DNA from: Gammaproteobacteria bacterium
GTDB lineage: Bacteria > Pseudomonadota > Gammaproteobacteria > DRLM01
Reading direction: 5' to 3'
NCBI GenBank assembly: GCA_037381915.1
Contig: JARRQJ010000021.1
Coordinates: 14,634-78,633, forward strand
DNA length: 64,000 nt
The first letter of the stretch is position 1, and every line of letters begins with the position of its first letter. The notes beneath the pieces are model-generated. The model searched no databases. It saw only the letters and a list, made by a program, of their open reading frames with translations, and was not told the origin of the DNA. A program made the position numbers and the translations under genes. Below, in pieces: positions 42,108-57,399 of this stretch.

Positions 42108-43411
42108 CGTGTCCTCAAGGGGTTAACGGGAACCAGATCGTTCGCCATGACCCAGTTCAGCGTGATGAAGTGTTTGTCGCCCGCGGCGATATCGATATCG
42201 TAGTCCCGCCTGGCCACCGGATTTTCCAGGCGGTCAAAAAGATCGACCTGAAGCTTATATTTGCCTGCCGGCAAGGGCAGGCGCGCCAGGCAGATCCGAT
42301 TGGGCAACGTCGACCAGCTGCGGGTATCGGCGCGATCGGTAATGGCATTGGCCAGATTGACCACCAGCCCGAGGGCATCGTTACGCCGCTGGGCTTCCTT
42401 GCTCTCCTTGGTTTTTATCACGGCTCGGGCGACGGCGCGGGCCAATATCGCCGGCTTTTGCTTTGCCAAGGCGTCCGTCGCCAGGGTGTCGACATTCTCG
42501 AATAGATCGGTGGTAACTCTCTTGCCATCGGCATCGAGACGCGCCGAGGTAACCGTCGGTTGGCGATCTTCGTAAGCGGGCATGGACACTGTCACCAATT
42601 GTCCCGACTGGGTGATCGCCCTGACCTCGATGGAGCGCTTGAGCGGCGCCAGACCGGTGTTGAGCAAGAATATAACCTCTCCATCACTCTTAGGAATCTG
42701 CGCCACCTTGGAGATATCGAATTTCTCCCGGTAGCGCCTTGCCTCCTCGTTGAGACCGACTTTGTCGGCAAGGCGGATCAAATCGGATTTCAGTTGTTGC
42801 GGCACCGGCATTTTGAGTTGCGGCGGATAGCGCCGGTAGGCGTCGTAGGCCTGTCGGTATGCGATCATGGCGTCATCCCATTCACCCAGGTCTTCATAAA
42901 TTATCCCCGTCAAGTAACGCGCAAAGCCATCCTCAAAATTTGAATTGTCACCGTGCTGTTTCAGCTTCACGTCCAGCTGCAGGGCCTCCACCCGCGCCTG
43001 GCCGGGCTGATGCATCGCCAGGTAATTCAACGCCTCAAAGACATGGATCAGGACCTGCTCGTAATAATCCCCCGTATAGCTGCGCATCATGTCATTGACG
43101 GTCAACGCCCCGCCCTGCTCGGTGACGCTGATGGCGGAAAGGCGGCTGATCATGGCCTTGGCCGACTCGAACGAGGCGTTGCTCGCCTCGTAATCGCCCG
43201 CCATCCGCAACAGCATGGCCCGATTGAGCAGGTAAAGCACCTGGTCCTTGCTCGAGGCGTGCTTCTCCAGGACCTGCAGGGCCTTGTCCGGCTGACCGCG
43301 ACTGATGTCGGACTCCATGTGGCCCACCCAGTCGCTGTAGGTAGCACAGCCTCCCAGGCCCGCCACCAGCAACAGCGCGCCGCACAGCGCCGCTATCTTG
43401 TTACCTGCCAC
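42104..43411 (-). CDS. COG3014-type helical/TPR lipoprotein
   Basis: Lipobox LGGC; Y.G.YYE...H...ALNYL, ARVE, ADTRSWSTLP. Confidence 0.78.
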   Translation of the reverse strand: MAGNKIAALCGALLLVAGLGGCATYSDWVGHMESDISRGQPDKALQVLEKHASSKDQVLYLLNRAMLLRMAGDYEASNASFESAKAMISRLSAISVTEQGGALTVNDMMRSYTGDYYEQVLIHVFEALNYLAMHQPGQARVEALQLDVKLKQHGDNSNFEDGFARYLTGIIYEDLGEWDDAMIAYRQAYDAYRRYPPQLKMPVPQQLKSDLIRLADKVGLNEEARRYREKFDISKVAQIPKSDGEVIFLLNTGLAPLKRSIEVRAITQSGQLVTVSMPAYEDRQPTVTSARLDADGKRVTTDLFENVDTLATDALAKQKPAILARAVARAVIKTKESKEAQRRNDALGLVVNLANAITDRADTRSWSTLPNRICLARLPLPAGKYKLQVDLFDRLENPVARRDYDIDIAAGDKHFITLNWVMANDLVPVNPLRTR

Positions 43412-43441
43412 GGTTATCCTTCAACCGTTGAAGGTCCGTTG

Positions 43442-44056
43442 TCAGAAACGTAAACTCGCCTTGGTAACGAATTTCTTGATCTTCTTCTGCCCTACCCACA
43501 CGATGCGGTTGTCCGCCAGACTGATCAAGCTGAGGTCCACCTGGTAGTACCGGACCTGTCGCTTGCCCTCGGTATCGAGGATGGTGTTGATCTGGCCTTT
43601 GAGCATGAAATCGGCGCCGAGCTCCCTGCCCATGGCCTTGCGCGTATCCTCGCGGGCATTGATGTCCTGGTCTTTGCGCTCCTCGCGGATCTCCTGACGC
43701 TGTTCCTTGGAGGCAACGAACTCCACTTTCCCCGAATTGATCAAGGCGCGCTCGATGTCGCTGACGAAGGTATTCACATTGATATGCTCATGGCTGAGAT
43801 TGCGGACCTCACCGACGATCACTGCGGGCTGCTTCGAGTGGGCCCGCTGGAAATTGCCCAGCCAGGCCTGGGAAAGCGCGTCCGAGATCATCTCCTTGGA
43901 GACCAGCTGTGAATCGGTATCATTCCACTCGCCGCTGAGATCGCGAACCTGATCGGGGGAAATGCGTTCCACCTTGGTAGCGCAGGCGCCGAGCGCCGCT
44001 ACCATCGTGAGCAAGAGCAGGCCCTTAAAAGATCGACGAATATTGTTTTTTATCAT
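43442..44056 (-). CDS. LpoB-like (penicillin-binding protein activator family) lipoprotein
   Basis: Lipobox LGAC; DLSGEWNDTD, VRN.SHEHI, GADFML.G.I, IVW.GQKKIKK. Confidence 0.8.
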   Translation of the reverse strand: MIKNNIRRSFKGLLLLTMVAALGACATKVERISPDQVRDLSGEWNDTDSQLVSKEMISDALSQAWLGNFQRAHSKQPAVIVGEVRNLSHEHINVNTFVSDIERALINSGKVEFVASKEQRQEIREERKDQDINAREDTRKAMGRELGADFMLKGQINTILDTEGKRQVRYYQVDLSLISLADNRIVWVGQKKIKKFVTKASLRF

Positions 44057-44622
44057 TTGCGCTCCTCAAGCATGCGATCGAAGATGCGATCGCCGTCGGT
44101 AGTAAGATGATTCTTGAATCCTTCGTTCATATCCTGAACCTTTTGCATAGTGGTTTTCAGCTGATTCATGTCGATTTCCGCCAGAGCATAAATTACATTG
44201 GACTTTTGGTCGCGCCAATGGCCGATGATGCGGCTCCCGGTCAGATTAATGCGGCTGACATTCTTGATCTGGCGTGAGATGCTGGATTCCAGGTTCTGGT
44301 CGTTGCCGCCCTTCACCGCCGCCGTGTAATCACGGGATACGACCTGCATATAAGAGGTCAGGATTTTCGCCACCTCCGCCCGAGCCCGATCGTCGGCCGT
44401 TGAGGTCTGCAGGGACATGTCCCCCATGGCGGGCGCCATGCCCACACCATGAAACAGGCGGTCGTTGTCGTGCTTGAGAATATTGGTGCCCTCGTTCACC
44501 CAGTCCGGCGCGCCTTTGATATGGAGATCGCTCTCTACCTTGGTCCTGCCGGCGCATGCCGTGAGGATCAGGATTGTGCTGACCACGGTGATAAAAGCTA
44601 ACAGATTGCGAGATGTCGTCAT
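44053..44622 (-). CDS. LPP20-like lipoprotein
   Basis: Lipobox LTAC; APDWV...FHGVG.A...ADDRARAEVAK. Confidence 0.72.
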   Translation of the reverse strand: MTTSRNLLAFITVVSTILILTACAGRTKVESDLHIKGAPDWVNEGTNILKHDNDRLFHGVGMAPAMGDMSLQTSTADDRARAEVAKILTSYMQVVSRDYTAAVKGGNDQNLESSISRQIKNVSRINLTGSRIIGHWRDQKSNVIYALAEIDMNQLKTTMQKVQDMNEGFKNHLTTDGDRIFDRMLEERK

Positions 44623-44894
44623 GACCGTCCTACTCCCTCAAAACGGAGAAAAGAGGAACTAAAGATACAAGATACCGGAAAAAAACGTAAGATGCGTCGC
44701 CGAAAATCACGGTAGAACATAAGTCTGAGAAATCATTATGCAAAGCCGCGATTCCGCTTCCCAACGTCGGGGGCACCCTCCTTCGTTCATCGCCCGCGTC
44801 GGCAAACCACAATCCGGGACTATGGTGAGCTTCGATCTCCCCCGGTCGGGACCGGCCGAGGAAGGACGTCAATCCTGCCGCGGCGCGGCGGCTG

Positions 44895-45095
44895 CTACTT
44901 CTTCCGGGTCGACAACTTCAAAGGGACATACAGCGGACAGAACGCAACGGCACTGGTCAACAGGAAAATGGCGGCAATCACTCCCAAAATGATCGCGGCC
45001 ACCCCGGATATCTGCCCGGTAAAATACAAGGCGACCACAACCAGGGCCAACACCGTTCTCACCAGACGATCCACGCTACCCATATTCTTGATCAT
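44895..45095 (-). CDS. DUF2892 (YgaP-like) small membrane protein
   Basis: KNMGSVDRLVR, two TMs, FCPLY...LST. Confidence 0.88.
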   Translation of the reverse strand: MIKNMGSVDRLVRTVLALVVVALYFTGQISGVAAIILGVIAAIFLLTSAVAFCPLYVPLKLSTRKK

Positions 45096-45312
45096 ATGAT
45101 TCCATCCTTTGCAGTCCCGGAAAAGCCCGGTGCCACACTCATCGGGTAAACAGCCTATCACTCAAGATTATCAGCCCATCGGCTCTGCAGAGGCAAGACT
45201 ATTAATTGAGATGGAAAACGCACGATTTGCGGGAGGCACCGCCCGAGCGGTTCTGGCCCGATCGGCCATTGAGGTCAAGCGCGTCGCCTATGAAAGGTGT
45301 GAACTATTGACG

Positions 45313-45627
45313 CTATGCATGCCCTGTCAACACGGATACCACGGCGCCCTCGCAGGGGGATCGAGGCGGATCATCGTTTTCCTGGAAACGTGGCGCCTCG
45401 CCTATCGAGCGCATTACCGGCAGCACGCTCACCACCGGATGGGGCAGTTCATCTTCCGGAACGACGCTGATGCGAAATCCAAAAGGGAAAGGTTCATCAC
45501 TCCGTACCAGATCAGGACATTCCTTCATCAGATATTTTATATGCCGGTCGTTCAAGCTCACCAGGACCGGAACCCGGCCATGAATCCGTTCAAACTCCTG
45601 TATCAAACCGAGTAGATAGCTGAGCAT
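45313..45627 (-). CDS. Hypothetical protein (104 aa)
   Basis: Strong SD AAGGAGG 8 nt before ATG 45627; plausible amino-acid composition. Confidence 0.6.
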   Translation of the reverse strand: MLSYLLGLIQEFERIHGRVPVLVSLNDRHIKYLMKECPDLVRSDEPFPFGFRISVVPEDELPHPVVSVLPVMRSIGEAPRFQENDDPPRSPCEGAVVSVLTGHA

Positions 45628-46006
45628 AATGGGCACCTCCTTACCGGATCAGGCATGCACTCAATCAATGTAGCTGGGCCAAGGGGGAGGCGCCGCTTGG
45701 GCAGTGACGCTCGGCATCGCGCCCGCCGTTGTCGCGTTGGCGGCGGGGAAAATGAAAGTGCCGCACTTCATTCCCTCCTCGAGCCCGACGGAATGACCGT
45801 GTATTTTATAGACGCTAAATGTGACAGCCTTGTGACTTGATCCGGAAGGGCATGGCGAGGCACCCTGCGCGCAAGCTGCAAGGCGGCGCACTGGGTAAAA
45901 AGGGCCTCGCTTCTTCGCATCACGGACGCCGAGTCGCTCGATCCCCCATCCGGCATCCGGTGTTTCAAGGTGCCGTGAGGATCCCCCAGACGCAGACGGC
46001 GCTTTC

Positions 46007-46058
46007 TCAAGTATATGATCACCATATACTTGACAATAGAACGATCGTTCCATATATT
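46007..46058 (+). promoter_or_regulatory. Sigma70 promoter with SOS-type operator and upstream palindrome
   Basis: TTGACA 46030-46035, 17-bp spacer, TATATT 46053-46058; GAAC-GATC-GTTC at 46039-46050; 11-bp-arm inverted repeat 46007-46033. Confidence 0.8.
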
Positions 46059-46064
46059 TGTTTG

Positions 46065-46637
46065 ATGGGTAACGATCGCGACTATCTCAGGAAACTCCAG
46101 GATTATTACGCCGCCCACGGCGTGGTACCCCCCTACTCCACCCTCATGCAAGTGGTGGGATTTCGCTCCAAGAGCCCCGTGGCGGCCTTGGTCAACCGTT
46201 TGAAACTGGCGGGTTATCTGGAATCCACGCCGGACCGCCGCCTGCGACCGGGTAAGCGCTTCTTCGAGCGACCTATCTACGAAAGCGTTCAGGCGGGCTT
46301 TCCCAGTCCCGCCAGCGACACTCAGCACGATGCCCTGACCATCGATGAATATCTGGTGGTGCACCCGTCGAAAACCGTGCTGGTAACTGTGAAGGGGGAC
46401 TCCATGACCGGTGCCGGCATTCACGGCGGGGACATCGTGGTGGTGGAAAAACGCGGCGATGCCAGAGTGGGCGACATCGTCATCGCCATTGTCGAGAACG
46501 AATTCACGCTGAAGTATCTCGACAAGGAAAAAGACGGATTCATACTGCGCCCGGCCAATCTCGCCTATCCCGTAATCCGCCCCAAGGGCAGCCTGGAAAT
46601 CTTCGGCGTTGTAGTCGGTTTGTTCCGCAAGTATTAG
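46065..46637 (+). CDS. lexA: LexA-family repressor (winged HTH + S24 peptidase with UmuD-like cleavage site)
   Basis: HTH region PPYSTLMQVVGFRSKSPV...L...GYL; Ala-Gly site VQAGFPSPA; catalytic Ser VKGDSM; catalytic Lys FTLK. Confidence 0.85.
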   Translation: MGNDRDYLRKLQDYYAAHGVVPPYSTLMQVVGFRSKSPVAALVNRLKLAGYLESTPDRRLRPGKRFFERPIYESVQAGFPSPASDTQHDALTIDEYLVVHPSKTVLVTVKGDSMTGAGIHGGDIVVVEKRGDARVGDIVIAIVENEFTLKYLDKEKDGFILRPANLAYPVIRPKGSLEIFGVVVGLFRKY

Positions 46638-46657
46638 CGCTGACCCGGCAGCGCCTC

Positions 46658-46915
46658 ATGACACTGACCGACTGGCCCAATGTGGTAGCCTATGTGGGTG
46701 CCGACTGCTTTTTCGCCGCCTGCGAACTCGCTCGGGCCCCAAATTGGGCCGCCGGTCGCTATGCGCGATGTCCACTGCATCGTGGCCAAGACCTATGACG
46801 CCAAGACGATGGGCATCTACGTCGGTATGCCGGTATAGGAGGCGAAGAAGCGCCTCCCCCATGCCCTATATCTTTCCGCGATTGCAGTCTTTACGGACAA
46901 ATGTCGGATAAGTAG
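46658..46915 (+). pseudogene. Decayed Y-family DNA polymerase (dinB/umuC-like) N-terminus
   Basis: MTLTDWPNVVAYVGADCFFAACE, frameshift, CIVAKTYDAK.MGI..GMPV*EAKKRLP.A.YL (TAG 46836-46838), further frameshift, truncated. Confidence 0.8.
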
Positions 46916-47100
46916 TGTGCCGATTGCCCTCAACAAGAAATACGACAATCACACGGTTTTAATGCCGGGGGTCATGCCCGTTGCAACACGAAAAAAGGAG
47001 TGCGCTTCCGTTTGCCCATGTATGAAGCAGGATGACCATCCCACGCGATTCGTTACGCCACTGGACCGTGCTTATGGTTAACGCCTGAGTCTGATAAATA

Positions 47101-47179
<79 letters not shown>

Positions 47180-47284
47180 ATTAGATTGAAACTGAAAGAT
47201 GGATGCCGCGACCGCTCCGCGTCTATACAGGCGCGCTATGATACTCGAGATAAGCGTCGAACACCAAAGCTATTTCAGCTTGGC

Positions 47285-47650
47285 TCAGCCTTTGAGCAAG
47301 GTCGCCAGCTTTTCCAGGTCCACACGCAACTGGCGAATGATATCCTTGCTGTTGGTAGCGGTGACGGGAATTTTGGTCTTGGTGCTCGTCCCCAATTGTT
47401 GGCGTGCCCCGCCGATGGTAAATCCTTGTTCATATAAGAGGCTGCGGATCTCGCGCACCATCAACACGTCATGCTGTTGATAGTAACGACGATTCCCGCG
47501 TCGCTTGACCGGTTTCAACTGAGGGAATTCCTGCTCCCAGTAACGCAGGACGTGCGGTTTCACCAAGCACAGATCACTGACTTCACCGATGGTAAAATAA
47601 CGCTTCCCCGGAATCGGGGGTAATTCATTGTTATTCGCTGCTTCCAGCAT
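47285..47650 (-). CDS. MerR-family transcriptional regulator (ihfA-linked)
   Basis: [25 protein letters not shown]...GNRRYY...GFTI.GA. Confidence 0.93.
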
Positions 47651-47933: not shown

Positions 47934-50372
47934 TCAGTCTCTCAAAGTAGCCCCGAAGGTGTCCCTCAATCTCGCCAATACCCTTTCCATAACGATATCG
48001 ACGTCTCCGTCCGTAAGAGTGCGCGAAGAATCCTGTAACGTCAAGCCCAACGCCAGACTTTTTTTCCCCGAATCAATGCCTTTGCCCTTGTAGACATCAA
48101 ACAACTGTAGTTCCTCTAGCCACTCCCCCGCCGCTTCCCGAATACTGCCTTGCAGCGCGGCACTGCTGACCGTATCGTCGACGATCACGGCCAGGTCACG
48201 ACGAATGGCCGGATACTTTGATGCCTCCCGGAAGCTGGGCAGTTGCGCCTGAGCTATTTCCTCTAGCGCCACCTCAAATAATACAGTTAATTTGCTGATA
48301 TTTAAAGAATTAGCAATACGCGGATGTAGCGTGCCCAGAATACCCGCCTCCCGCCCGTGGGGAGAAGTGAATTGTGCGGTTTGTCCCGGATGCAGCGCCG
48401 GGTGCGATGCCGCGTTAAACAGATAGTCCTGGGCAAACCCGGTCATGGCCAGTAACGTCTCCACATCCTTTTTGACATCGAAGAAATCCGTTTCCCGCTC
48501 GGTTTCCGCCCATTGCTCCGGCATCAGACTGCCCGCCACGATGCCGGCAATCACGGTCTCCTCCCGCACCTGCCCCTCCCTCCGCCGGAAGCGCGTCCCG
48601 ATCTCGAACAGGCGTATCCGATCTTGTCTTCGATTTAGATTATAGAGCAAGGCCTGCACCAAGCCAGGCCAAAGACTGGTCCTCATTACCGCCATGTCGG
48701 CGCTGATCGGGTTGGCCAAGCTCACGGGCGCATGTTCGGGATCAAGCAGTTCCTGCAGGCGAGGATCGACGAAACTATAAGTGATCGCCTCTTGATAGCC
48801 GCGCTCGATCAGACGTCGCCGCAGAACCGCTGTCCCGACCTTGCTTTCGGACCGGCGTTGCATCGTAGCGGGAACGGGTGGGCTGTGGCTCGGCAGACGG
48901 CTGTAACCGTAGATGCGGGCGAGTTCCTCGATCAGATCGGCCTCGATGCTGATATCAAAACGAAACGAAGGCGGTGTCACTTGCCAGCAGTCATTTTCTT
49001 CCATCACGTCCATCCCTAAACGCTTCAGGATACTCATTACCTGCGCGCGCGGAATGTCGGCACCCAATAAACGTCCCATTCGGGCAATACGCAACGGAAC
49101 CTGGGCGGGTTGCGGGAGATGGGACCGGCTGCTCTGCTCCATGATGGGACCGGGCCTTCCGCCGGCAATGTCCAGCAGCAAGCGCGTGGCGCGTTCCATG
49201 GCGCGGCGCGCCGACTCAGGATCCACGCCTCGTTCGAAACGATGGGACGAGTCGGTATGCAGACCATAACGCCGCGCACGGCCGGCCATGGCCGCCGGTG
49301 CGAAATAGGCGCTTTCCAGCAGAATATGTCGGGTCGCGTTGGCCATGGCCGCCGGTGCGAAATAGGCGCTTTCCAGCAGAATATGTCGGGTCGCGTTGCC
49401 GACGGCGCTCGCGGCGCCGCCCATGATGCCGGCCATGGCCACCGCGGCAGCGTGATCGGCGATCACCAGGGTATCCTTGTCCAAATCGACTTCCTGATCA
49501 TCCAACAAGCGCAGGCGTTCATTCGCCCGCGCCAGCCGCACATGAATCCCGCCCTTGAGGCGTTCCAGGTCGAACGCGTGCATGGGCTGACCCAATTCCA
49601 GCAGGACGTAATTGGTGACGTCTACCACGGCGTTGATGCTGCGCAAACCGCTGCGGCGCAATCGCTCCTGCATCCACATGGGTGTCGGCGCATCGACCGC
49701 TACGTCCCGGACGATACGCGCTGTATAGCGGGGACAGGCTTCGGGGGCGCTGACCTCCAGCGGGACTTGTTCGTCTATCTCAGCCGCGACGGGCGCGACC
49801 TCCGCGTCGCGCAGCGGAACGCCGTTGATAACGCTCACTTCGCGGGCAATCCCGGCCACACTCAGGCAATCACCGCGGTTGGGGGTCAAGCCCAATTCGA
49901 GGCTGACATCATTGAGCAGCAGATAATCGCGCACATCCTGTCCCGGCTCTGCGTCGTTGGAAAGGATCATCAGGCCTTCCGAGCTGTCCGCCAGGCCCAG
50001 TTCCTTAGCCGAACACAACATTCCTTCCGATGTCTCGCCGCGCAGCTGGGATTTTTCTATATTGATCCCGCCCGGGAGTTTCGCGCCGACCACGGCGACC
50101 GGCACCCGTACGCCCTTCGCCACGTTGGCGGCGCCGCAGACGATGCTCAAAGCTTCCGCCGCACCGACGTTGACCTGGCAGACGCGCAATCGATCAGCGC
50201 CGGGATGGGGTTCGACACGCAGCACCTCACCCACGACCACGTTGCTGAAGTACGGCGCCACCGGCTCCACGGCATCCACTTCCAGGCCGGCCATGGTGAG
50301 TTGCTCCGCCAGGTCGGTCGTGGAGATGTCGGGGTTCACCCATTCCCGCAACCATTGTTCGCTGAATTTCAT
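47934..50372 (-). CDS. pheT: Phenylalanine-tRNA ligase beta subunit (with internal 19-aa duplication)
   Basis: MKFSEQWLREWV start at 50372; TPNRGDCLS, GQPMHAFD, RFERGVDP, FDVY.G. Confidence 0.97.
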   Translation of the reverse strand: MKFSEQWLREWVNPDISTTDLAEQLTMAGLEVDAVEPVAPYFSNVVVGEVLRVEPHPGADRLRVCQVNVGAAEALSIVCGAANVAKGVRVPVAVVGAKLPGGINIEKSQLRGETSEGMLCSAKELGLADSSEGLMILSNDAEPGQDVRDYLLLNDVSLELGLTPNRGDCLSVAGIAREVSVINGVPLRDAEVAPVAAEIDEQVPLEVSAPEACPRYTARIVRDVAVDAPTPMWMQERLRRSGLRSINAVVDVTNYVLLELGQPMHAFDLERLKGGIHVRLARANERLRLLDDQEVDLDKDTLVIADHAAAVAMAGIMGGAASAVGNATRHILLESAYFAPAAMANATRHILLESAYFAPAAMAGRARRYGLHTDSSHRFERGVDPESARRAMERATRLLLDIAGGRPGPIMEQSSRSHLPQPAQVPLRIARMGRLLGADIPRAQVMSILKRLGMDVMEENDCWQVTPPSFRFDISIEADLIEELARIYGYSRLPSHSPPVPATMQRRSESKVGTAVLRRRLIERGYQEAITYSFVDPRLQELLDPEHAPVSLANPISADMAVMRTSLWPGLVQALLYNLNRRQDRIRLFEIGTRFRRREGQVREETVIAGIVAGSLMPEQWAETERETDFFDVKKDVETLLAMTGFAQDYLFNAASHPALHPGQTAQFTSPHGREAGILGTLHPRIANSLNISKLTVLFEVALEEIAQAQLPSFREASKYPAIRRDLAVIVDDTVSSAALQGSIREAAGEWLEELQLFDVYKGKGIDSGKKSLALGLTLQDSSRTLTDGDVDIVMERVLARLRDTFGATLRD
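49284..49397. repeat. Exact 57-bp tandem duplication within pheT
   Basis: GGCCATGGCC...GGTCGCGTT at 49284-49340 and 49341-49397; encodes NATRHILLESAYFAPAAMA twice. Confidence 0.97.
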
Positions 50373-50386
50373 CGAAGCTCCACAAA

Positions 50387-51412
<1,026 letters not shown>

Positions 51413-55380: not shown

Positions 55381-57399
55381 CTAGCCGACGGCGGGCAACT
55401 TGAAACTGCTCTCCTGGAGACGATGAATCTCGTCGCGCAGGCGCGCCGCGGCCTCGAACTCCAGGTTGCGGGCGTGCTCGTACATCTGCTGTTCCAGCCG
55501 TTTGATCTTCTGCGCCAGTTTGTCCGGCGGCAGCGCCGCGTAGCGCAGGCTCTCTTCCGCCACCCTGGCGTAATGGGCCGCGGTGTCGGGCGCGCCGGCG
55601 TGGGCGCCCTCCATGATATCGGTGATCGCCTTCTGGATGCCGCGGGGCGTGATGCCGTGCGTTTGGTTATAGGCGAGTTGTTTGTCGCGACGCCGCGTGG
55701 TCTCGTCCATGGCGCGTTGCATGGAACCGGTCACCCGATCCGCGTACATGATGGCGGTGCCGTTGATATTGCGCGCGGCACGGCCGATGGTCTGGATCAG
55801 CGAGCGATCGGAACGCAGAAAGCCCTCTTTGTCCGCGTCGAGGATGGCCACCAGAGACACCTCGGGGATATCCAGCCCTTCACGCAGCAGATTGATCCCC
55901 ACCAGCACGTCGAATGAACCCAGGCGCAGGTCGCGGATGATCTCCATACGCTCCACGGTATCGATATCCGAATGCAGGTACCGCACCCGCACCCCGTGCT
56001 CGGCCAGGTATTCGGTGAGATCCTCGGCCATGCGCTTGGTGAGGGTGGTGACCAGGACCCGTTCCTGGAGCGCAACGCGCTTGCGCACCTCCGACAGCAA
56101 GTCGTCCACCTGGGTCAGGGCGGGACGCACGATGATCTCGGGATCCACCAGCCCGGTAGGACGCACCACCTGTTCCACCACCTGGCCGGAATGGGCGCGT
56201 TCATAGTCGGCGGGCGTCGCCGAGACATAGATGGTCTGCGGTTGGCGGCGCTCGAATTCCTCGAAACGCAGCGGCCGGTTGTCCATGGCCGAGGGCAGGC
56301 GGAAACCGTACTCCACCAGGTTTTCCTTGCGGGAACGATCGCCCTTGTACATGGCCCCCAGTTGCGGCACCGCCACGTGGCTCTCGTCGATGACCAGCAA
56401 GGCGTTGTCGGGAAGGTAGTCGAACAGGGTCGCCGGCGGTTCGCCCGCGGCGCGCCCCGCCAAATGCCGCGAATAGTTTTCGATGCCGGGACAATGGCCC
56501 AGCTCCACCAGCATCTCGATATCCAGACGGGTGCGCTCCTCCAGGCGCTGCGCCTCCACCAGTTTATTGAGGCTGCGCAGTTGTTCCAGCCGTTCCTTGA
56601 GTTCAGCCTTGATCAGCTCCACGGCCTTGAGCACCCGGTCGCGGGGCGTCACGTAGTGGCTTTTGGGATAGATGGTGATGCGCGGCAACTTGCGCGTCAC
56701 CTCGCCGGTGAGGGGATCGAATAGGGCGATGGATTCGATCTCGTCGTCGAACAGTTCCACCCGCACCGCCTCGGCATCGGAATCCGCCGGATAGATGTCA
56801 ATGACCTCACCGCGCACCCGGTAGGTGGCACGGCGCAGTTCCATATCGTTGCGCGTGTATTGCAGCTCAGCGAGGCGGCGCAGAATGCCGCGCTGGTCCA
56901 CCAGGTCGCCGCGGCTGAGATGCAGCACCATGCTGAGATAGGCCTCGGGATCCCCCAGACCGTAGATGCAGGACACCGTGGCAACGATGACCACGTCGTG
57001 CCGTTCCATCAGCGCCTTGGTGGCGGACAGGCGCATCTGTTCGATATGATCGTTGATGGAGGCGTCTTTCTCGATATAGGTATCCGAGGACGGCACATAG
57101 GCCTCGGGCTGGTAGTAATCGTAATAGGAAACGAAGTACTCCACGGCATTGTGGGGGAAGAACTCCCGCATCTCGCCGTAAAGCTGCGCCGCCAGAGTTT
57201 TGTTGGGCGCCAGGATCAAAGTGGGGCGTTGCACTGCCTGAATCACGTTGGCGATGGTGAAGGTCTTGCCGGAGCCGGTGACGCCCAACAGGGTCTCTCC
57301 CGCCAGGCCGTCGTTCAGACCGGACACCAGCGCCTGGATGGCCGCGGGCTGGTCGCCGGTGGGGGCGAACTGGGCGGAAATTTCGAAAAATTTACTCAT
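55381..57399 (-). CDS. uvrB: Excinuclease ABC subunit UvrB
   Basis: [41 protein letters not shown]-terminal FE.AA.LRD. Confidence 0.98.

Follow-up and report, generated by a model that had tools for sequence, protein, structure and literature searches.

The noncanonical LexA of Sideroxydans lithotrophicus and its relatives, the subject of the 2015 work of Sanchez-Alberola et al., reportedly binds the motif GAACGaaCGTTC and has spread laterally. Its regulon in S. lithotrophicus is said to comprise six genes, core SOS genes among them, and its DNA-binding domain is said to be so little like that of Bacillus subtilis LexA that the shared motif would be convergent. Here we describe a repressor, P0001, that resembles this protein; it is encoded within a 64,000-nucleotide stretch of DNA (hereafter the window) from a metagenome-assembled genome (MAG; G000) of 3.46 Mb that is 94% complete and comprises 129 contigs. 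The points of likeness to the LexA of S. lithotrophicus and Gallionella are a LexA-like protein of ~190 residues, an operator of the form GAACG-N2-CGTTC, an association with the Gallionellales/Nitrosomonadales and signs of lateral spread. The differences lie in the host, here an uncultured lineage labelled Gammaproteobacteria; in the regulon, which seemingly includes only P0001's own operon rather than the six genes reported for S. lithotrophicus; and in a canonical lexA cassette that is binned with the window genome.

Second or otherwise unusual LexA proteins, autoregulated and serving an adjacent mutagenic polymerase but not recA, are known from Geobacter, in lexA-dinB operons, and from Pseudomonas putida, in its lexA2-imuA-imuB-dnaE2 cassette. 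Both differ from P0001 in operator motif and in protein clade; furthermore, in the genome studied here imuA-imuB is attached to a canonical lexA and not to P0001. B. subtilis LexA (DinR), whose box is GAAC-N4-GTTC, shares the half-sites and the spacing of the core operator, but P0001 is no close relative and scores only 93 bits on the lexA model TIGR00498. A functional parallel is offered by UmuDAb of Acinetobacter: this UmuD-like S24 protein has an N-terminal helix-turn-helix, cleaves itself, and represses both itself and error-prone polymerase genes in a small regulon; its SOS box is large and atypical, and DdrR acts as its corepressor (PMC4807011, PMC8565304). The likeness to P0001 is one of function only; the operator of P0001 is by contrast a simple palindrome of 12-18 bp.

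Our preferred reading, to which we give a probability of roughly 0.78, is that P0001 is an intact, self-cleaving LexA-type repressor of a noncanonical Gallionellales/Nitrosomonadales clade with a GAACG-N2-CGTTC operator, autoregulated, translated from a leaderless message and laterally acquired, whose companion polymerase has decayed. A dimer would bind the single palindrome that fills the -35/-10 spacer of its own promoter and exclude RNA polymerase, resulting in negative autoregulation. Upon DNA damage RecA filaments would induce the S113/K150 dyad to cut the repressor's own A77-G78 bond, which would derepress the operon. Transcription would start at the ATG, or 0-2 nt from it, and the message would be translated leaderless. 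In relatives the operon would run on into a Y-family translesion polymerase, the whole forming a small repressor plus mutagenic-polymerase module; in the window strain the polymerase has decayed, and the only target left to the repressor appears to be its own gene.

The promoter and probable operator of the repressor gene

The original prediction described a TTGACA-17-TATATT promoter with a palindrome in its spacer, an ATG that lacks a Shine-Dalgarno sequence and a second inverted repeat. All were located where claimed (Table 1). The two hexamers match 11 of 12 consensus positions and are separated by 17 nt. By itself this match is not significant, because shuffled sequences yield 1.0 +/- 1.2 promoter-like sites as against 2 in the 1.6 kb scanned. 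The palindrome, on the other hand, is more than chance, because it is conserved both in genomes of the same genus and at related loci: among the window genome and two same-genus genomes (G001 and G002), GGAACGATCGTTCCATA forms an invariant island amid diverged upstream DNA, with the positions of the -35 and the ATG also kept. The core 12-mer GAACGATCGTTC is present as a single copy in the whole 3.46-Mb genome.

Relatives of P0001 are encoded at 401 loci (one genome per species). For the comparison of promoters we took the best 79 of these, mostly from Gallionellaceae, Sulfuricella, Nitrotoga, Sideroxydans and Nitrosomonadales at 65-76% identity, which together with the window give 80 promoters. 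GAAC-N4-GTTC occurs no more than 50 nt from the ATG at 75 of the 79 loci, lying at -26 to -31 in 74 and at -49 in one more; three of the remaining four (L046, L062, L102) have one-mismatch or GTAC variants and the last (L101) has no box. The operator is of the Bacillus type, as had been proposed from the window sequence. Across the clade, the bases flanking GAAC and GTTC inward are G and C in 57 of 58 distinct sites.

The geometry of the promoter is equally constant. TTGAC, the box and a -10 element (A2, T6) occur together in 75 of the 80 promoters, the spacer measuring 17 nt in 67 of them and 18 nt in the other eight, and in 72 of the 75 the box begins 3 nt past the -35. In 73 of these 75 an ATG 6-9 nt past the -10 is the earliest in-frame start codon (at 6 nt in six, 7 nt in 33, 8 nt in 31 and 9 nt in three), and a Shine-Dalgarno-like sequence is found in only two. 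L103 is the exception to the ATG rule, and in the window a TTG 3 nt past the -10 directly precedes the ATG at 6 nt. Because this geometry is kept across 65-100% protein identity, it argues strongly, if indirectly, both that the operator occludes the promoter and that transcription starts at the AUG or no more than 2 nt from it.

In the window 6 nt (TGTTTG) separate the -10 from the ATG at 46065, before which there is no Shine-Dalgarno-like sequence. The features of a leaderless message are therefore present: an AUG start, no Shine-Dalgarno sequence and a -10 that ends 6-9 nt before the AUG. Together with the clade-wide geometry they strongly suggest that the transcript begins at the repressor AUG, or no more than 2 nt from it, and that the mRNA is leaderless, as the original prediction had proposed alongside autoregulation. 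The same geometry gives autoregulation equally strong support. It is possible to imagine instead that the promoter lies further upstream and that the ATG is used via a mechanism other than Shine-Dalgarno pairing, or that the true start codon is elsewhere: the reading frame stays open upstream as far as 45837, and gene callers have often picked upstream starts in related records, giving products of 202-232 residues. We consider this unlikely. The N-termini of the family align on the Met used in the window and most members are 190-192 residues long; the upstream in-frame codons are merely the translated operator (ERSFH), beyond which there is no conservation; and the distance between -10 and ATG is held within the same narrow range in nearly all promoters.

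An S24-family repressor with an mRNA that begins at the AUG is familiar from phage lambda, whose cI is so transcribed from PRM. The comparison is one of analogy only; in phage records no relative exceeds 35% identity. A literature search joining leaderless mRNA, LexA and SOS box gave no paper evidently on this clade. A scan of 45000-47600 against Rfam returned a tRNA only, and the spacer at 45637-46064 has no further copy in the genome.

In one subclade there is a second operator. Ten of the 80 promoters (L055, L057, L073, L077, L078, L081, L089, L092, L095 and L100, of Sulfuricella type) carry a perfect GAACGATCGTTC at +6 to +17 of the gene, and two more carry a near-perfect copy. This site falls in codons 2-6 (S-N-D-R-S), ~33 nt from the promoter operator. 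The corresponding degenerate copy in the window is, judging from its weight-matrix score (Table 1), probably non-functional.

The second inverted repeat of the window is a different matter. With 14-nt arms that are 93% complementary, and overlapping the -35 as it does, it could be taken for the binding site of a second regulator that co-controls the promoter, a possibility raised in the original prediction. We regard this as very improbable. The repeat is missing from the orthologous promoters of G001 and G002 and falls within ~240 nt of extra spacer, a segment that has no counterpart in G001. It is also polymorphic among close strains (46017 G>A and 46021 A>C in three marsh-metagenome runs). 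Furthermore there is no other copy in the genome and hence none of the repetition expected of a regulon.

Table 1. Features of the repressor locus (coordinates are those of the window)
Feature	Position	Strand	Basis or remark
Second inverted repeat, TTCTCAAGTATATG / CATATACTTGACAA	46004-46017 / 46023-46036		14-nt arms, 93% complementary, 5-nt loop; lineage-specific
-35 hexamer TTGACA	46030-46035	+	promoter scan
Predicted operator ATAGAACGATCGTTCCAT, filling promoter spacer	46036-46053		core palindrome GAACGATCGTTC at 46039-46050
-10 hexamer TATATT	46053-46058	+	promoter scan
Gene for P0001, 190-residue noncanonical LexA-type repressor	46065-46637	+	open reading frame; stop codon 46635-46637
Winged-helix domain, ~residues 1-62	46065-46250	+	AF2 model
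Degenerate second-operator copy (TAACGATCGCGA)	46070-46081		repeat I7; weight-matrix score -5.2 bits
Cleavage site A77-G78	46293-46298	+	alignment to UmuD
S113	46401-46403	+	catalytic dyad
K150	46512-46514	+	catalytic dyad
Y-family polymerase remnant (DinB-like core, UmuC-like length and tail)	46658-47030	+	tblastn with 410-residue G001 orthologue
tRNA-Pro(GGG)	47103-47179	-	directly after polymerase remnant

The repressor and its downstream polymerase

P0001 matches Pfam Peptidase_S24 over residues 70-184 (E 3.4e-28). Its cleavage context, VQ-A77-G78-FPSPA, aligns with VQ-C-G-FPSPA of Escherichia coli UmuD, and alignments of 15, 54 and 37 homologues show little or no variation at A77, G78, S113 and K150. 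Among solved structures the best sequence match is E. coli UmuD (8gmt, E 3.9e-20), with Thermotoga LexA behind it (8e-13), and P0001 scores slightly higher on the UmuD model of NCBIfam than on the lexA model. The AF2 model (54 homologues, pLDDT 90.1) consists of helices at residues 2-18, 24-31 and 36-48 and strands at 52-54 and 60-62, followed by the S24 fold. In Foldseek the top matches are full-length LexA structures over 189-202 columns (3k2z, E 1e-13, 193 columns); UmuD' also matches, with TMt 0.85-0.88, as does the DNA-binding domain of LexA (1lea, TMt 0.71). These comparisons indicate that the architecture is that of LexA and that in sequence the protease domain leans somewhat towards UmuD, which bears out the combination of a LexA-type winged helix with a UmuD-like cleavage region first read from the sequence. 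The repressor gene is intact and under purifying selection: the ratio of nonsynonymous to synonymous substitution rates (dN/dS) is 0.06 against G001 and 0.08 against G002, and 0.06-0.13 among the three orthologues of the genus.

In a quick, unrooted tree of 48 rows canonical LexA, including that of E. coli, the window genome's own canonical LexA and relatives, and short UmuD each stand on a 99% branch. P0001 does not cluster with canonical gammaproteobacterial LexA; it falls in a separate group and is 31-41% identical to the LexA-like proteins of its relatives. The short UmuDs and the distant full-length relatives of P0001 together form a polytomy that the tree does not resolve. The term hybrid used in the original prediction is fair as a description of the scores, but descent of the S24 domain from UmuD is more than this tree can show.

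P0001 shares with E. coli UmuD the xG-FPSPA cleavage context and the Ser/Lys dyad, and its orthologues share a Y-family polymerase directly downstream. It differs in that UmuD has 139 residues and no DNA-binding domain, whereas P0001 has 190 residues and a winged helix of 62; in that the cleavage site is Ala-Gly and not Cys-Gly; and in that the neighbouring polymerase of the P0001 type has a DinB-like core. In G001 and G002 this polymerase is an intact gene of 410 codons that follows the repressor gene. It contains IMS and IMS_C domains with a weak DUF4113 tail and scores ~210 bits on Pol IV models and 154 on the UmuC model, all under the cut-offs; its core shares 36% identity with E. coli DinB across 226 residues, and it aligns with E. 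coli UmuC at 26% identity over 409.

A search of the 79 related loci with the G001 polymerase (tblastn) returned matches in 32 and none in 47, although for several loci the downstream flank is too short to judge. Of the matches 29 are directly downstream of the repressor, three of them fragmentary (L031, L057, L074), and that of L042 lies 2.5 kb from the repressor gene. The remaining two matches, at Sulfuricella/Gallionellaceae loci (L029:3576-5219 and L034:982-2868), are distant UmuC-like genes in place of the DinB-core polymerase, each with a true umuD of 167-170 bits between it and the repressor gene. No other neighbouring gene is conserved among the related loci.

In the window only a remnant of the polymerase is left. 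Residues 1 to ~30 and 44-78 are found in different frames with a stop, followed by ~83-89 and then directly by ~368-408: three frames and one in-frame TAG (IMS domain match), with ~280 codons deleted. The same remnant is present on a 2258-nt contig of an independent marsh-metagenome run, which covers 45800-47127 with five substitutions but without gaps, and is thus genuine rather than a product of assembly.

The UmuD-like character of the protease domain raises the possibility that P0001 does the work of both proteins, cleavage derepressing the operon and at the same time releasing a UmuD'-like fragment beginning GFPSPA for a co-transcribed UmuC-like polymerase. Such a one-gene fusion of both control layers, with the whole switch contained in ~35 bp and the polymerase half since decayed, has several observations in its favour. 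P0001 scores 108.7 bits on the UmuD model as against 74 for the canonical LexA of the same genome; it shares 37-39% identity with E. coli UmuD' in the structure-based alignment and matches UmuD in cleavage context; and the polymerase downstream of its orthologues aligns with UmuC over nearly its whole 410 residues, with the weak DUF4113 tail typical of UmuC. No separate UmuD was found in G001 or G002, where a lexA-model search (E<=1e-5) that caught UmuD-length matches in other genomes gave one match each. We nonetheless hold a dual role to be improbable, and the proposed fusion no less so. The core of the polymerase is nearer DinB, in identity and in score on the Pol IV models, and DinB-type enzymes are not known to need UmuD. 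More than half of the 79 loci (47) show no such polymerase downstream; at two loci a separate, true umuD stands between repressor and UmuC-like gene; and the window strain has lost the polymerase yet kept the repressor. The analogous UmuDAb does not supply UmuD function (PMC4807011).

The tRNA gene that directly follows the remnant suggested integration at a tRNA, an idea that was rejected since the 3 kb around the orthologous loci of G001 and G002 contain no tRNA gene. A conserved divergent open reading frame of 107 codons (45313-45636, minus strand), which has no NCBIfam match, is also found beside the G001 orthologue. Between ihfA and the tRNA gene is a small MerR-family regulator (47285-47650, minus strand) in what looks like an ordinary pheT-ihfA context. 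The pheT-like open reading frame itself (47934-50597, minus strand) contains an exact tandem duplication of ~19 residues, ATRHILLESAYFAPAAMAN occurring twice, which arose either by recent in-frame duplication or through faulty assembly.

The regulon and the canonical lexA cassette

A weight matrix was built from the 58 distinct operators of the clade and used to scan the genome. The window site scores 26.2 bits and the next best site 17.3; since the matrix derives from the clade's own promoters the top score is partly circular, and the value of the scan lies only in the lack of other sites. Of the 19 distinct sites ranked next, all fall in long open reading frames except one of 13.2 bits (C43:17148), which was dismissed; its half-site is broken and it lies in the spacer between Crp-like and CheV-like genes, with no repair gene beside it. 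Two exact-pattern sites in G001 were likewise inspected and dismissed. Overall the exact pattern is not enriched, with 2-4 occurrences per genome compared with 5-9 for a reversed control.

Neither the canonical nor the GAAC-type box is present within 450 nt upstream of recA in the window genome (C8:10003-10965) or of its orthologues in G001 and G002 (L130, L131), and no GAAC-type site above 7 bits lies within the same distance of recA in a Sulfuricella or a Nitrotoga genome. In a Sideroxydans MAG a related GTAC variant, TGGTACGATCGTACTA, is found 80 nt upstream of recA. For want of either box, recA of the window's genus may lie outside LexA control. Both box types are also missing upstream of dinB of the window genome and of uvrB (window 55417-57387, minus strand), the latter as first noted from the window sequence. 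A second target is likely in G002, where another perfect 18-bp palindrome, ATGGAACGATCGTTCCAT (L125:1499-1516), stands 18 nt before another DinB-like polymerase gene of 409 codons. Taken together, these distributions make P0001 and its orthologues look like dedicated regulators of themselves and of translesion polymerases, and in the window strain of the repressor alone. To speak of an SOS module, as the original prediction did, was to overstate the case: the scan finds no second strong site genome-wide and no box before recA, uvrB or dinB.

The window genome also contains a canonical lexA, on contig C19 (12950-18780; loci L003 and L106), which scores 236 bits on the lexA model. It is preceded by CTGTTATTTTTAACAG and by a second, one-mismatch box, both of the CTGT-N8-ACAG type, and followed by imuA (225 bits), an imuB-like gene and an open reading frame of 1052 codons that is presumably dnaE2. 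The canonical and noncanonical lexA promoters each bear their own type of box only. However, C19 is compositionally unusual (tetranucleotide r 0.933, GC 0.554; third most atypical of 53 contigs of at least 20 kb) and its flanks show only short, scattered matches to G001 and G002: it is either an acquired island or a mis-binned contig. That one cell holds both LexAs is for this reason uncertain. The second, canonical lexA that the original prediction suggested looking for is present in the binned genome, then, but on an atypical contig, in a cassette barely shared with the sister genomes. Two genomes from other genera of the order (G007, G011) have a lexA ~60% identical to the canonical LexA of the window genome, with imuA alongside.

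In G001 (100% complete) and G002 (99%) the P0001 orthologue is the only LexA homologue returned by a search with the lexA model at E<=1e-5, and three betaproteobacterial hosts likewise have no canonical LexA. This indicates the opposite of an extra module beside a normal LexA, which is what the original prediction implied. It also invites the view that P0001 is the master SOS repressor of the organism, as its counterpart in Sideroxydans reportedly is, with a wider regulon whose degenerate sites escaped the scan; besides its position as sole LexA in the two sister genomes, the TGGTACGATCGTACTA variant before recA of the Sideroxydans MAG speaks for this. We think it improbable, and slightly less likely than either a dual UmuD-like role or an upstream start, for recA has no site above 7 bits within 450 nt in any of the three genomes of the genus or in the Sulfuricella and Nitrotoga genomes, uvrB and dinB of the window genome have none, and the exact pattern is rarer than in the reversed control.

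Distribution, probable lateral transfer and implications

A protein search returned 3833 homologues of P0001 at E<=1e-10. Those at 70-76% identity are proteins of 191 residues annotated as 'LexA family transcriptional regulator' from Gallionellaceae or Nitrosomonadales. Of the 79 best loci 77 show 65-76% identity over the full length, while the other two, from 'uncultured Gammaproteobacteria' MAGs at 85% and 93%, belong to the window's own genus. A protein of a Sideroxydans MAG is 73% identical to P0001. The identity of P0001 to proteins of Gallionellaceae, Sulfuricella and Nitrotoga that have the same box agrees with the betaproteobacterial LexA clade mentioned in the original prediction, and on its sequence P0001 is a further member of a known LexA clade in a new host lineage rather than a new kind of repressor.

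The order to which the window belongs is represented by 12 genomes in five genera. Of the five genomes of the genus three have an orthologue of P0001 and two, with a completeness of 83-84%, do not; it is present in none of the seven from the other genera, which carry different LexA-like proteins that are 31-41% identical to P0001. An even sample across the class contains it in three of 400 genomes (E<=1e-60), a count that includes the unpublished genome G156. The window contig is itself compositionally typical (tetranucleotide r 0.995), and synteny with G001 extends from 42828 to 46920. The simplest reading of this distribution is that the module passed from a betaproteobacterial lineage to the genus; the ancestor of the genus probably acquired it in this way, the direction of transfer being judged from the distribution. 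Lateral acquisition, as originally proposed, is thereby supported at the level of the genus. An origin from a plasmid was rejected: plasmid records hold only relatives below 60% identity, mostly enterobacterial umuD, and the best full-length matches, 'S24 family peptidase' genes of Rhodanobacter plasmids, reach 39% identity. Descent from a phage repressor was rejected on the same grounds, relatives in phage records being no more than 35% identical.

Several points weigh against our preferred reading of P0001 as an autoregulated, laterally acquired LexA-type repressor. The winged helix scores only 20 bits on Pfam LexA_DNA_bind (PF01726; E 5.9e-4), under the cut-off of 23.7, and the whole protein falls below the cut-offs of both NCBIfam models, with 93.4 bits against 110.95 for lexA (TIGR00498) and 108.7 against 110 for UmuD (NF007621). 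Operator binding, self-cleavage and the start of transcription are deduced from motifs, models and comparison. The clade of P0001 is one that we take to be that of Sanchez-Alberola and colleagues, and the proteins compared did not include the characterised LexA of S. lithotrophicus. For the most part the low dN/dS records evolution that preceded the decay of the polymerase. In addition to the partial circularity of the matrix, it is not obvious what a repressor gains from controlling only itself; either some targets, with degenerate sites, escaped the scan or the module is heading for loss. With a MAG of this completeness and number of contigs, other targets are also possibly unassembled.

If not already described, three features of the clade are of interest: the compact promoter kept clade-wide, with an operator that fills the spacer and an ATG at the predicted start of the transcript; the frequent link between a UmuD-like protease domain and a Y-family polymerase with a UmuC-like tail; and, in one subclade, the second operator within codons 2-6. 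What the window genome itself appears to hold is a small, partly decayed module and not a working alternative SOS system. More broadly, the Bacillus-like LexA of iron- and sulfur-oxidising Betaproteobacteria would also have entered an uncultured gammaproteobacterial genus of marshes where, as the sole LexA of two sister genomes, it would provide another case of SOS regulators replaced via lateral transfer.

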